A stretch of DNA of 37,605 nt from an uncultured Bdellovibrionales bacterium (lineage in GTDB: Bacteria; Bdellovibrionota_C; UBA2361; SZUA-149; DAOLCO01), in NCBI GenBank assembly GCA_964472005.1, contig CAYYIQ010000002.1:1-37605 (forward strand). Reading direction: 5' to 3'. The notes under the pieces are model-generated. The model was not told the origin of the DNA and did no database searches. It saw only the letters and a program-made list of their open reading frames with translations. The position numbers and the translations under genes are program-made. Each line of letters starts with the position of its first letter. Within the stretch, counting starts at the first letter, position 1. Positions 33,147-36,453 of this stretch are shown here, piece after piece.

Positions 33147-33587
33147 AGACTAAAAAACTCGCACTCTTAAAATATATTAATAACTATCTAGAAATATTTG
33201 TAATACTTACCAATACCAGTATCTGATGGGAACTGTACAATGGTTTATTTTAGTAATAGTGTGTCTAAAAACATTTATTCTTCATAACAATAGAGATATT
33301 AGATATTTCAAGAATGGTGATACCCAAATATGTGAGATTTCCGTGAATTTCGTTAGTCTTAAACAATGCGACCGAGTTTCCGCTTTAATAACGACGCTTA
33401 GCATAATTTAGCGTTTTTGCGCTCTATAACTTGAACTAGTTACAAGATATATAGGTCGAGCTTAAATCACTATTCTTGAGATAGAAATAAAAGGTTTTTA
33501 AATTTTTACGGAGAAGGACCTGGTGTACTTATCGAGTATAGCAGGCCCTTCTCTGACAATATGGATGTCAGTGTTTCAAACTTAGTT

Positions 33588-33609
33588 GCAACGTAAGGGA
33601 TAGTGTTGC
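33588..33609 (+). promoter_or_regulatory. Stem-loop presenting GGA in its loop, in the leader of the tandem csrA gene (candidate CsrA binding site)
   Basis: A 5 bp stem GCAAC/GTTGC (33588-33592 / 33605-33609) around the 12 nt loop GTAAGGGATAGT, with GGA at 33598-33600. A second GGA lies inside the Shine-Dalgarno GAGGA at 33622-33626. Confidence 0.35.
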
Positions 33610-33633
33610 TGCTTCATCGGCGAGGATATGCTG

Positions 33634-33969
33634 ATGTTAGTTTTAAGTAGGAAGATTGGCTTTGGTGTCATGCTTGGTTCGGACGTGCAAATCACTCTGA
33701 ATCGTAGTACAAGCACTCAAGTAACGCTATGGATCAAGGCCCCACGGAACAAGTCAGTTCGAAGATCTAAATTAGATCCTCAAACTCCAAGCTTGGAAAC
33801 CAAGATTTCAAATTTGGTTTTGACTTTGAAAGTGGGCGAGAGTTTAATTGTCGATGAGACGACCACACTCACGATCCTCAAAAAAGGTGGAAGCATTCGA
33901 TTCGGAATCAATGCTCCACGAGACATCAGAATTCGAAGAACTGAACTTGATGATCTCAATGTAGCGTAA
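33634..33969 (+). CDS. csrA: Tandem (two-domain, single-chain) carbon storage regulator CsrA/RsmA-family RNA-binding protein
   Basis: Domain 1 is MLVLSRKIGFGVMLGSDVQITL....QVTLWIKAPRNKSVRRSKL. Domain 2 is NLVLTLKVGESLIVDETTTLTILKKGGSIRFGINAPRDIRIRRTEL. Both match the CsrA pattern MLILTRR.GE...IG.....V......QV..GI.AP....V.R.EI. The start at ATG 33634 has GAGGA 7 nt upstream, and an alternative in-frame ATG lies at 33628. Confidence 0.8.
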   Translation: MLVLSRKIGFGVMLGSDVQITLNRSTSTQVTLWIKAPRNKSVRRSKLDPQTPSLETKISNLVLTLKVGESLIVDETTTLTILKKGGSIRFGINAPRDIRIRRTELDDLNVA

Positions 33970-33985: not shown

Positions 33986-34047
33986 CCGATTTCGAAGCTA
34001 TCTGTGAAATTGACTTAAAATTCAATATCCAGATAGCTTCGATTCGG
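33986..34047 (+). terminator. Long hairpin terminator after tandem csrA, between convergent genes
   Basis: A 13 bp perfect stem TCGAAGCTATCTG/CAGATAGCTTCGA (33992-34004 / 34030-34042) plus an outer 4 bp CCGA/TCGG, followed by TTTTAAATTT. Confidence 0.65.
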
Positions 34048-34057
34048 TTTTAAATTT

Positions 34058-34981
34058 CTATCTCTCCCACTTGCCATTGATCGCTGACAAAATACTTTCA
34101 TACACTTCAATTAACTCCTTCCTTAGGGGGACGGACTCATCATGTATCTTCTTTTGTTCGCTTACGTATTGTTCGACGCCATCCGAAGTTTCAAGCTTCA
34201 ATGGCTTAACGTCATACTCGGACAGATCGTATGGACTTGCTTTCATATCAATTAGGCGGGCATTCTTTGCCAATATAAATAACCGACTAAGTAAATTTGA
34301 TGGAATAAACGGCGCAATTTTATAGCCAAATTTGTAAAGATCCATGTTCGCATGGATACAGCCCGCTTGATCATGTTCAAGAACCTCGTCTCTACGTAAT
34401 TGAACTTTATTCAATGGAGATGAACTAGGTGTAAAAAAACGAAAAGCGTCGTAATGTGTACAACAAATCTGCCTGGATTCAACAAATTTAGATATTTCAT
34501 TTTCGCTAACTCGGAATGGCGTCTCGGGATGTTGCCTCCTATCGGCTTTATAAACCATCGCCCATTCGTGCATTCCAAAACAATGAAAAACTGGAGGTCG
34601 ATCAAGAGTAATGCGAAGATACTTCAATGCCCATTCTAAAAACTTCTTTCTTTTAAGTGGAAATAAATGGATATCAACATATTCACTATTATTTGAGATC
34701 TTTACATGATCTGGCCATTCAATCAGGCTCGGGAATGAAGGTTCCCCAGTGCCCGGTTGATATATGATTTTAGACTTTGTGCCAGGAGACCATCGAAGAA
34801 GCTGTCCAGTGGAAAAACTGTAATAGCTAAAAAGAAAGTCATACACTGGATGCTTCTGGCCACGAGTTCTCCAGTATCTAAAATCATTAACAAACGGCGA
34901 GATAAGTCTTTTGTGTTCTTTTTTCAAATATATTGCTTCACTTTCCGATAAAGAAACAATATATTTAGCTTTGTTTAACAT
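34058..34981 (-). CDS. Conserved-looking soluble hypothetical protein (307 aa)
   Basis: Long open frame with no antisense competitor of similar length. Segments such as HPVYDFLFSYYSF, LLRWSPG and MDLYKFGYK...IDMKASPYDL seem familiar from a family sometimes auto-annotated as 3-methyladenine DNA glycosylase. I cannot verify that from memory. Confidence 0.55.
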   Translation of the reverse strand: MLNKAKYIVSLSESEAIYLKKEHKRLISPFVNDFRYWRTRGQKHPVYDFLFSYYSFSTGQLLRWSPGTKSKIIYQPGTGEPSFPSLIEWPDHVKISNNSEYVDIHLFPLKRKKFLEWALKYLRITLDRPPVFHCFGMHEWAMVYKADRRQHPETPFRVSENEISKFVESRQICCTHYDAFRFFTPSSSPLNKVQLRRDEVLEHDQAGCIHANMDLYKFGYKIAPFIPSNLLSRLFILAKNARLIDMKASPYDLSEYDVKPLKLETSDGVEQYVSEQKKIHDESVPLRKELIEVYESILSAINGKWER

Positions 34982-35940: not shown

Positions 35941-36453
35941 CTATTTGTTAATCTCTTCATAATAGGATGCTCTTAATCGTTCCAGGTATTCCCCAGAAAA
36001 TTTACCTTGTACCAGCCCATTCTCATGGTGATGCTCCCAACTTGTCACACATTCTACCAATGATGTGATATCTATTTTTCTTTGAAGAACAAGTATTACC
36101 CTTTTTAATCTTCGATAGAACATTTCAATCCTTTGAGAAGCACAAAGTCTCTCAAAATGTATTTCGCAATATGCGGGTTTCTGATTTCTATTTCGAACTC
36201 TTCCAAGGGAACAAACAAATTCAACTGTCGGATCATCCGTATTTACATTTGCGACTAAGCCTACCAAGCAGAATGCCCCCTTATTAGAAAGTCCCAATTG
36301 TTCTAGTTTTGAAACTATTGGGAGAATTTCAACGACATTTTTAAATTGGTTGAGATCAGACGTATTACGAATCTTTTGAAACCCTTTGCAATCAGGTCCC
36401 AATTCCTCATGCCACATCTTTAAAACTGACGATACTTTTTCTTGATTAGACAT
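35941..36453 (-). CDS. Small helical protein with a Cse2/CasB-like sequence pattern (tentative); otherwise hypothetical
   Basis: 170 aa. W..EL...C..FQKIRN.SD (E. coli CasB has W..L....CAQIRRVSE), then SLGR, then E.HFERL...Q..EM..RRLKR...L.....ID...L...V..W. This mirrors the CasB SLGR...ERR.FQL......M..LRRL.......LDW..L....W pattern as I remember it. No other cas genes are nearby. Confidence 0.3.
   Translation of the reverse strand: MSNQEKVSSVLKMWHEELGPDCKGFQKIRNTSDLNQFKNVVEILPIVSKLEQLGLSNKGAFCLVGLVANVNTDDPTVEFVCSLGRVRNRNQKPAYCEIHFERLCASQRIEMFYRRLKRVILVLQRKIDITSLVECVTSWEHHHENGLVQGKFSGEYLERLRASYYEEINK

Follow-up and report, generated by a model that had tools for sequence, protein, structure and literature searches.

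The stretch of DNA analysed here (37,605 nucleotides (nt), hereafter the window), from contig CAYYIQ010000002.1 of an uncultured Bdellovibrionales bacterium, carries on its forward strand a gene coding for two CsrA domains in a single polypeptide. The product, referred to below as tandem CsrA, is best seen as a natural single-chain asymmetric CsrA, its gene having a probably autoregulatory leader of three hairpins. CsrA is among the best-studied bacterial post-transcriptional regulators, and its mechanism has been framed on a symmetric homodimer whose two RNA sites are identical; a single-chain CsrA that occurs in nature and has non-equivalent sites would be an evolutionary experiment on this two-site model. 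The interpretation starts from two observed domains, an uninterrupted open reading frame (ORF), purifying selection, an asymmetric residue pattern, and a conserved structured leader.

The tandem csrA gene and the predicted fold of its product

The gene comprises the following parts (window coordinates and strand; aa, amino acids):

33634..33969 (+): coding sequence of tandem CsrA, 111 aa plus stop codon (ORF list and gene callers on six contigs)
33634..33774 (+): CsrA domain 1, aa 1-47 (Pfam 44.0 bits, AlphaFold2 strands, residue mapping on E. coli CsrA)
33775..33810 (+): 12-aa linker DPQTPSLETKIS, aa 48-59, at the site of the domain-1 alpha-helix
33811..33966 (+): CsrA domain 2, aa 60-105, then the C-terminal helix and tail, aa 103-111 (Pfam 42.8 bits)

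Scanned alone with the Pfam CsrA profile (PF02599, cut-off 27 bits), domain 1 is matched over aa 3-49 (44.0 bits, E 2e-11) and domain 2 over aa 63-107 (42.8 bits, E 5e-11), which bears out the claim of a preliminary description of this DNA, made from the sequence alone, that two complete CsrA folds reside in one polypeptide. The NCBIfam csrA equivalog cut-offs are passed solely by both domains summed (the whole protein scores 75.8 versus a cut-off of 73 in NF002469, and 72.8 versus 70.1 in TIGR00202). The top sequence matches in the PDB are solved CsrA, RsmA, and RsmE chains, for domain 2 over aa 61-107. The motifs quoted in the preliminary description are correct (MLVLSRK and NLVLTLK, ..AP....VRR and ..AP....IRR.EL, and the linker DPQTPSLETKIS), and the mutual identity of the halves, only 29%, agrees with its view of an old duplication that has strongly diverged. 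The linker, put there at ca. 13 aa, is real, but its length from CsrA position 47 to position 1' (primes denote positions in domain 2) comes to 12 aa. Likewise, the ORF given as 33628-33969 (+) is present in the ORF list and its frame is real, but the start is more likely at 33634. The in-frame ATG at 33628, which would add Met-Leu, lies merely 2 nt past the Shine-Dalgarno sequence GAGGA (33621-33625), while the second ATG, at 33634, lies 8 nt past it, restores the family N-terminus MLVLSRK, and was chosen by the gene callers on the other contigs; it is therefore the likely start of the 111-aa protein (P0001).

Tandem csrA is the sole CsrA-bearing ORF in the window (hmmsearch in all six frames). 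Identical DNA, 100% over the ORF and ca. 200 nt of each flank, occurs on five further contigs from five samples (three from ENA and two from JGI). Searched exhaustively with phmmer, a set of 1.84 billion cluster representatives yielded an orthologue, P0002 on contig L085; it is 56% identical, also 111 aa long, and its frame is uninterrupted over all 111 codons. A word-indexed protein search with the single tandem CsrA sequence returned the self match only, and among the matches listed for the GTDB species representatives there is no close relative of the gene. The coding sequences of the window gene and the orthologue share 64% of their nucleotides, with saturated synonymous divergence (dS ~1.4) and a ratio of nonsynonymous to synonymous divergence (dN/dS, Nei-Gojobori) of 0.24 overall: 0.18 in domain 1, 0.31 in the linker, which is the least conserved segment (44% nucleotide identity), and 0.26 in domain 2. 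Domain 2 starts with Asn, not Met, and the linker contains no Shine-Dalgarno sequence, start, or stop. That two adjacent csrA genes were merged erroneously in sequencing or assembly, or that the gene is a decaying pseudogene, found no supporting evidence and can thus be dismissed with near certainty: six identical assemblies and the uninterrupted frame of the orthologue rule out an artefact or frameshift, and the low dN/dS, the Asn start, and the signal-free linker speak against it as well. Tandem csrA is a real uninterrupted gene under purifying selection.

The AlphaFold2 model, computed from an alignment of 21 tandem CsrAs, is one compact single-chain fold with a mean predicted local distance difference test (pLDDT) of 92.7 and a predicted template modelling score (pTM) of 0.84, so that the monomer, whose modelling had been proposed in the preliminary description, comes out as a confident single globule. 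Instead of the five strands and one helix of each canonical protomer, the prediction shows the beta1-beta5 pattern twice (strands 2-6, 11-14, 18-25, 29-37, and 42-44 in domain 1, and 58-66, 70-73, 77-84, 87-93, and 100-102 in domain 2) and a single helix, 103-110, after domain 2 only. The linker region, 45-57, forms neither helix nor strand (pLDDT ~86-91), and past beta5' the C-terminal tail has 6 aa only. A pTM of 0.84 for a two-domain chain indicates that the halves are packed in a defined manner, and the model is consistent with an intramolecular interdigitated (swapped) topology of the two domains. A Foldseek search of the PDB revealed no single-chain equivalent of this fold among solved structures. 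Where the canonical protein is a homodimer, each of its identical chains having ca. 60-75 aa, tandem CsrA is a single chain with domains 29% identical, and its RNA sites are therefore necessarily non-identical.

Two predicted RNA-binding faces and a conserved leader

The parallel strands beta1 and beta5 that form each RNA site of CsrA come from opposite monomers, and L4 and R44 are critical (PMC7652899). Since each site joins beta1 of one protomer to beta5 of the other, the fused protein has two different sites. The strongest alanine mutants of E. coli CsrA are those in R44, V42, L2, I47, V40, L4, R6, and R7 (PMC6692469). R6 and E46 form an inter-subunit salt bridge in the swapped dimer (PMC3791407), termed indispensable to the structure and activity of RsmE (PMC6692469). 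The GGA motif is recognised chiefly via backbone contacts (PMC6692469), and in RsmE a looped-out base is received by a hydrophobic patch that the helix forms (PMC3791407). Mapping of both domains onto E. coli CsrA assigns the residues to the faces as follows:

Face A (canonical throughout): beta1 from domain 1 (L2, L4, R6, K7), beta5 from domain 2 (I, I, R102, E104, L), plus the helix
Face B (three positions altered, helix absent): beta1 from domain 2 (L, L, Leu65, K), beta5 from domain 1 (Lys40, V42, R44, Lys46, L47), plus the linker

On face A every conserved RNA-contact residue is present, L2, L4, R6, and K7 coming from strand beta1 (MLVLSRK) of domain 1, and I40', I42', R44' (R102), E46' (E104), and L47' from strand beta5' (IRIRRTEL) of domain 2. 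Face B keeps L2', L4', K7', V42, R44, and L47; however, R6' is replaced by Leu65 in beta1' (NLVLTLK), and both V40 and E46 by Lys in beta5 of domain 1 (KSVRRSKL), which is not followed by a C-terminal helix. On face B the R6-E46 bridge has thus lost its two partners jointly (Leu65/Lys46), whereas the bridge of face A is intact. The two non-identical RNA-binding faces expected in the preliminary description are thereby confirmed at the level of residue mapping, the asymmetry being sharper than claimed, with R6, V40, and E46 all changed on one face.

The orthologue has Leu at R6', Asn at position 46, and Arg at position 40 of the same face, and its beta1' and beta5 strings are alike, including R43, R44, and L47. 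Among 86 two-domain CsrAs, assembled as described below, R6 of domain 1 is Arg in 84 proteins and a gap in two, while R6 of domain 2 is Arg in 76, a gap in seven, Leu in two, and Lys in one. The two proteins with Leu are P0001 and P0002, and these also carry K/N at E46 and K/R at V40 of domain 1, on the same face. The co-variation of Leu65 and Lys46 is as expected if beta1 of domain 2 contacts beta5 of domain 1, and it argues against homotypic pairing of like domains. The lowest dN/dS being that of domain 1 and the beta5 string of this domain being conserved between the orthologues, face B does not appear to be decaying. With L2, L4, V42, R44, and L47 kept, and conserved in the orthologue, it is probably still functional, with altered affinity or specificity, as a weaker or differently tuned second RNA site. 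A general degeneration of face B across tandem CsrAs was also considered and set aside, the difference (9 versus 5 proteins) being too weak to claim.

Outside the coding sequence, the following elements were found:

33476..33504 (+): promoter candidate, sigma-70-like TTGAGA-17-TAAATT (consensus scan, 9/12 matches; implied leader ~120 nt)
33509..33555 (+): strong 5'-proximal leader hairpin (free energy, dG, -29.6 kcal/mol; z -7.0; 0/200 shuffles as stable)
33553..33571 (+): leader hairpin a, CUGACA[AUAUGGA]UGUCAG (loop GGA at 33563-33565, then UGU; identical in the orthologue)
33588..33609 (+): leader hairpin b, GCAACGU[AAGGGAUA]GUGUUGC (loop AAGGGAUA, GGA at 33598-33600)
33615..33636 (+): leader hairpin c, CAUCGGC[GAGGAUAU]GCUGAUG (Shine-Dalgarno GGA at 33624-33626 in loop GAGGAUAU; identical in the orthologue)
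33993..34051 (+): terminator-like hairpin, 12-bp outer stem CGAAGCUAUCUG / CAGAUAGCUUCG, then AUUCGGUUUU (dG -27 kcal/mol, z -6.9)

Hairpins a, b, and c were predicted by RNAalifold on the leaders of the window gene and the orthologue. The 90 nt before the start codon are identical at 84 positions (93%), compared with 64% for the coding sequence. The loop region of hairpin a is near the consensus RUACARGGAUGU (PMC6692469) obtained by SELEX (systematic ligand evolution through exponential enrichment). In L085, hairpin b has three substitutions atop the stem, through which pairing is kept (G-U to A-U; U-G to G-C), and its loop is invariant. Hairpin c, with the start codon (33634-33636) within its 3' arm, has a dG of -9.2 kcal/mol (z -3.2, 0/200 shuffles as stable). 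The GGA motifs are spaced by 35 and 26 nt, inside the range of 10-63 nt over which one CsrA dimer bridges two sites (PMC7652899). Three GGA-loop hairpins within 110 nt form the sole such cluster on both strands of the window; a cluster of this kind, located anywhere, was held by 15 of 200 simulated windows. As AGGA is not enriched window-wide, the signal of the leader lies in the placement of GGA in loops and not in motif density. E. coli CsrA represses its own translation via leader sites including the Shine-Dalgarno sequence (PMC7652899); this precedent, the conserved three-hairpin leader, and the spacings within the bridging range point to translational autoregulation of tandem CsrA.

No other convincing GGA-hairpin target besides csrA was found at the Shine-Dalgarno sequences of the 29 start regions scanned. 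Rfam, at both gathering and permissive thresholds, returned no family for the leader or the 3' hairpin, only generic hairpin noise. The 5' arm of the strong 5'-proximal hairpin, GGAGAAGGA, has two GGA motifs buried in the stem, and its 3' arm is conserved in L085. The promoter candidate is weakly indicated, such sites being no more frequent in the region than in shuffles. The terminator-like hairpin is situated between csrA and a convergent gene, 34058-34981 (-), and its stem is kept in the orthologue through a compensatory U-A to C-G change. A separate observation is that AGGA is under-represented on both strands of the window (1-37605): 250 occurrences versus 303 +/- 15 in dinucleotide-preserving shuffles, of which 100/100 have at least the observed number. 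Spurious Shine-Dalgarno or CsrA sites may be avoided in this DNA, or the deficit may come from codon usage alone.

The proposed mechanism and its alternatives

The reading preferred here, with moderate confidence, is that of a single-chain asymmetric CsrA pseudo-dimer with a canonical face A, a remodelled face B, and an autoregulatory leader. The two CsrA domains and the 12-aa linker would fold into the interdigitated beta-sandwich that is normally made by two chains. Face A would most likely act as a classical translational repressor site for GGA hairpins, and face B probably as a second RNA site that is weaker or tuned differently. Most likely, the protein would repress its own translation by binding the three GGA-loop hairpins of the leader, with the Shine-Dalgarno sequence and the start codon lying in the last of them. 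Of this, we infer the swapped topology within one chain, the binding of RNA, the autoregulation, and how far face B functions, and several points weigh against the whole. The interdigitated topology and the Leu65-Lys46 contact are predictions from the model scores and the co-variation, and the Foldseek search gave no match (best E 0.31), hence no positive support, a null result that is expected because solved CsrA folds are split over two chains. The co-variation on face B represents one evolutionary event (two sequences), and loss of a bridge termed indispensable could mean that this face is dead for RNA. The comparison of the leaders likewise comprises two sequences and one compensatory pair, hairpins a and b are individually no stabler than shuffles (z -1.6 and -1.2), and it may be a different CsrA, encoded elsewhere in the genome, that targets the leader.

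The same sequence could also describe a functionally symmetric covalent dimer, with both faces binding GGA hairpins about equally and the changes on face B being neutral drift. The benefit of fusion would then consist in stability, concentration-independent assembly, or insulation from mixing with CsrA paralogues. Equivalents of R44, L2, L4, V42, and L47 are present on both faces, the backbone-mediated recognition of GGA (PMC6692469) fits this explanation, and the fusion itself needs no asymmetry, as most other tandems keep R6 and E46 in both domains. Many tandems are also recent duplicates (halves at least 60% identical in 21 of 86). Nevertheless, it is rather unlikely: three positions of the alanine scan (R6, V40, and E46) are altered on one face only, the same face lacks the helix that in RsmE provides the patch for a looped-out base (PMC3791407), and the orthologue, although synonymous divergence is saturated, has the same or similar derived states on face B, a pattern that fits selection better than drift. 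The opposite extreme, in which face B no longer binds RNA and is either an inert structural half of a monovalent protein or a docking surface for an antagonist of the FliW/CesT type, draws on the lost R6-E46 bridge, indispensable for RsmE (PMC6692469), the V40 to K change, and the missing helix. An engineered CsrA with one dead face, as far as summarised in PMC7652899, still binds RNA and represses glgC less, and substitutions of R6, R44, or E46 are somewhat commoner on face B across tandems (9 versus 5 proteins, gaps excluded). This trend, however, is not significant, and the low dN/dS of domain 1 (0.18), the conservation of the beta1' and beta5 strings with R43, R44, and L47, the more basic character of the face than in canonical CsrA, suiting nucleic-acid binding, and the lack of fliW or another candidate partner gene nearby make a loss of RNA binding doubtful.

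Pairing between chains, with domain 1 of each molecule joined to domain 2 of a different one, resulting in dimers or open-ended chains with at least four RNA sites, has to be considered as well, since the Leu65/Lys46 co-variation needs heterotypic domain pairing but not intramolecular pairing; the 12-aa linker is short relative to other tandems, and proteins with four CsrA domains exist. Such an arrangement is improbable, given that AlphaFold2 puts both halves into one globule (pTM 0.84, linker pLDDT ~86-91) and that by a geometric estimate 12 residues can span the ~20-24 Å from the end of beta5 to the start of the neighbouring parallel beta1. A bolder, speculative proposal is that a new ligand, be it a protein or an RNA element other than GGA, is now bound by face B, turning tandem CsrA into a bifunctional adaptor that couples GGA mRNAs bound by face A to a second partner. 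Should it be true, the protein would act in a way that is closed to a symmetric CsrA homodimer, and, more broadly, multi-CsrA proteins (those with two or four domains, S17 fusions, and the modules of a giant ORF, all presented below) would constitute an unrecognised branch of Csr regulation.

If the single-chain pseudo-dimer is accepted, tandem CsrA shows that the dimer can be hard-wired and its faces then diverge, one of them having lost a bridge termed indispensable. It would offer a ready-made system for dual-site bridging versus single-site binding in regulation, with the conserved three-hairpin leader as a candidate cognate RNA.

Genomic surroundings, multi-CsrA-domain proteins and known systems

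The window is chromosomal, with 37% G+C, and its ORFs were read by eye as housekeeping genes (accA, miaA, mutL, lpxB, msbA, kdtA, and others), a Pfam check being confined to ORFs near csrA. The AccA protein shares 64-74% identity with proteins of metagenome-assembled genomes that carry the NCBI labels Oligoflexia, Bdellovibrionales, or Bdellovibrionota, which places the organism in the Bdellovibrionota. The csrA gene stands alone. Upstream lies a divergent gene for a Na/Ca exchanger, 487 nt from the start at 33634, and downstream the convergent 307-aa gene 34058-34981 (-); the neighbours also include PNP oxidase, DUF423, and unknowns. The Pfam scan of neighbouring ORFs in the window found no fliW or flagellar gene near csrA. 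The 37.6 kb hold no second csrA, no Csr/Rsm RNA of Rfam (the sole Rfam family is one tRNA), and no further cluster of GGA hairpins of the kind expected for a multi-GGA sponge small RNA (CsrB/RsmY/RsmZ type). The 307-aa gene has no Pfam match and adjoins csrA also on contigs L001, L004, and L005 of the same organism. An ORF of 170 aa, 35941-36453 (-), gives a borderline match to CRISPR Cse2 (PF09485; 24.1 bits versus a cut-off of 24.6); its Pfam-scanned neighbours encode a VTT-domain protein and a bacterial PH-domain protein, and a hairpin that contains GGA and includes G-U pairs overlaps the Shine-Dalgarno region of this ORF.

Tandem CsrA belongs to a wider class. A CsrA-domain hidden Markov model (HMM), built from single-domain hits, was applied to the 150 best representatives of 50%-identity clusters, and 66 of these contain two CsrA domains, one contains three, and three contain four; 20 further two-domain proteins came from a profile search of a set of 5.8 billion proteins, giving the 86 two-domain CsrAs (66 + 20) used above. 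The four-domain chains are P0005, P0010, and P0030 (Pfam-confirmed) and the three-domain one P0097 (CsrA-domain HMM), all 275-310 aa long, and P0011 (255 aa) joins a ribosomal protein S17 domain to two CsrA domains (Pfam). Identity between the halves ranges in the 86 proteins from 19 to 90% (median 48%), and domain-1s resemble one another no more than they resemble domain-2s (0.418 versus 0.408). Both results indicate that the fusion arose many times independently. Linkers have 9-51 aa (median 19), the 12 aa of the window protein being near the short end, and with halves 29% identical this protein stands at the diverged end; apart from P0002, no tandem CsrA is closer to it than 42% identity. 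In three tandem examples with longer contigs the genes are stand-alone, in housekeeping neighbourhoods (gyrB, hisS, greA; toxin-antitoxin pairs) without fliW. In scans of genome and metagenome contigs nearly all matches listed are single-domain csrA genes, to which the Planctomycetota labels of the genome contig scan also belong, and the matches listed include no orthologue closer than P0002. Long tblastn matches (L006, L010, L013, L045, L065, L096, L157, and others) were rejected as tandems, being single domains with spurious extensions.

One locus merits separate description. In L087:1-12324 (JGI Ga0247727_10000609, 87.5 kb; 64569-76892, reversed) a single open frame extends over 4,108 codons without a stop, while the other five frames of this 12.3-kb locus contain 115-300 stops each; the G+C content is 46-51%. 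The frame comprises modules of phosphoglucomutase, two separate tandem-CsrA modules (four CsrA domains), a 6-phosphogluconolactonase/glucosamine-6-phosphate isomerase-like module, and unknowns, with the peptide R-[SA]-E-[VI]-R standing between modules 16 times, in many cases directly before the Met of the next module, as in RSEVR|MLVLSRK (twice) and RSEVR|MTRREFLRTAG, by eye resembling a twin-arginine translocation (Tat) signal. Synonymous variants suggest that the motif is under selection as a peptide. The locus has the look of an operon whose genes were joined to code for one polyprotein, the processing site being repeated, or else of an unknown form of recoding; the motif has no occurrence in the literature searched.

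InterPro lists some proteins with two PF02599 domains. Where multi-CsrA-domain proteins are named at all, the label is only 'carbon storage regulator'. The phrases 'tandem CsrA' and 'CsrA domains' have zero occurrences in ~8.3 million full texts, and nothing relevant to a tandem, fused, or single-chain CsrA was found in the literature searched. The words 'tandem', 'fused', and 'fusion' are absent from a comparative-genomics review of the CsrA family (PMC7366521), and a 2026 domain-wide survey of ~7,500 homologues (PMC13443453) lacks 'tandem', 'duplicat', and 'two domains', using 'fused' for reporter fusions only. This survey, in which the single-domain CsrA of Bdellovibrio bacteriovorus is described as a functional repressor (PMC13443453), would hide the architecture, since its sequences were trimmed to the Pfam model. 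The architecture occurs in dozens of sequence clusters, and family analyses trimmed in this way may overlook a whole subclass. Thus, the multi-CsrA-domain class is recurrent in databases and not described in the literature searched. Of the preliminary description's view that the arrangement is unusual and not an already common, annotated family, the part on annotation stands, naming being generic only, and the part on rarity does not.

Compared with canonical CsrA, RsmA, and RsmE (PF02599; 1Y00 of E. coli, 2BTI of Y. enterocolitica, and 2JPP of P. fluorescens, respectively), both halves of the window protein match the profile and show the same beta1-beta5 pattern, and the GGA hairpin of the gene overlaps its own Shine-Dalgarno sequence, as in the autoregulation of E. 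coli csrA (PMC7652899). It differs in being one 111-aa chain with one C-terminal helix, not two identical chains of 60-75 aa, and in a second face without the R6-E46 bridge and V40. In the FliW-partnered CsrAs of the Bacillus/Campylobacter type, fliW is adjacent in a flagellar operon and the C-terminus is extended; the window csrA adjoins no fliW or flagellar gene within the window, and its tail has 6 aa. RsmN of Pseudomonas aeruginosa (PMC3791407) has a rearranged fold in which the R-E salt bridge and the key arginine are kept (R62 being the equivalent of R44 in RsmA, and R8/E64, to judge from the numbering in PMC3791407, those of R6/E46), so the family tolerates topological change. However, RsmN is a non-swapped homodimer with an alpha-helix of ~16 aa inserted between beta2 and beta3 (PMC3791407), while the window protein represents a duplication-fusion, and in its model only three residues separate beta2 (11-14 and 70-73) from beta3 (18-25 and 77-84) in both domains.

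The nearest structural precedent for a single-chain fold resembling the CsrA dimer is the C-terminal domain of the YqeH GTPase (3EC1; PMC2954204), in which two structural repeats of one chain form a beta-sandwich like that dimer. Its sequence shows no detectable homology to CsrA, the compact repeats are related to CsrA by a segment swap, the domain is a part of a GTPase, and it is not among the Foldseek matches of the window model. The other multi-CsrA proteins (P0003, P0004, P0159, and P0169; P0005, P0010, and P0030; P0011) share with the window protein the CsrA-repeat architecture, linkers of 9-51 aa, and location as stand-alone chromosomal genes, but nearly all of them keep R6 and E46 in both domains and many are recent duplicates, neither of which holds for the window protein. 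A further parallel is a made one: an engineered heterodimeric CsrA (wild-type/R44A), with which the bridging of two sites 10-63 nt apart was demonstrated (Mercante et al. 2009, in the summary of PMC7652899), and in which, with one face dead, RNA binding was kept and repression of glgC was weaker (PMC7652899). In that summary the engineered protein consists of separate chains with a deliberately dead site, whereas the window protein is fused and has R44 on both faces; with its two non-equivalent faces, the latter would be a natural counterpart of the former.

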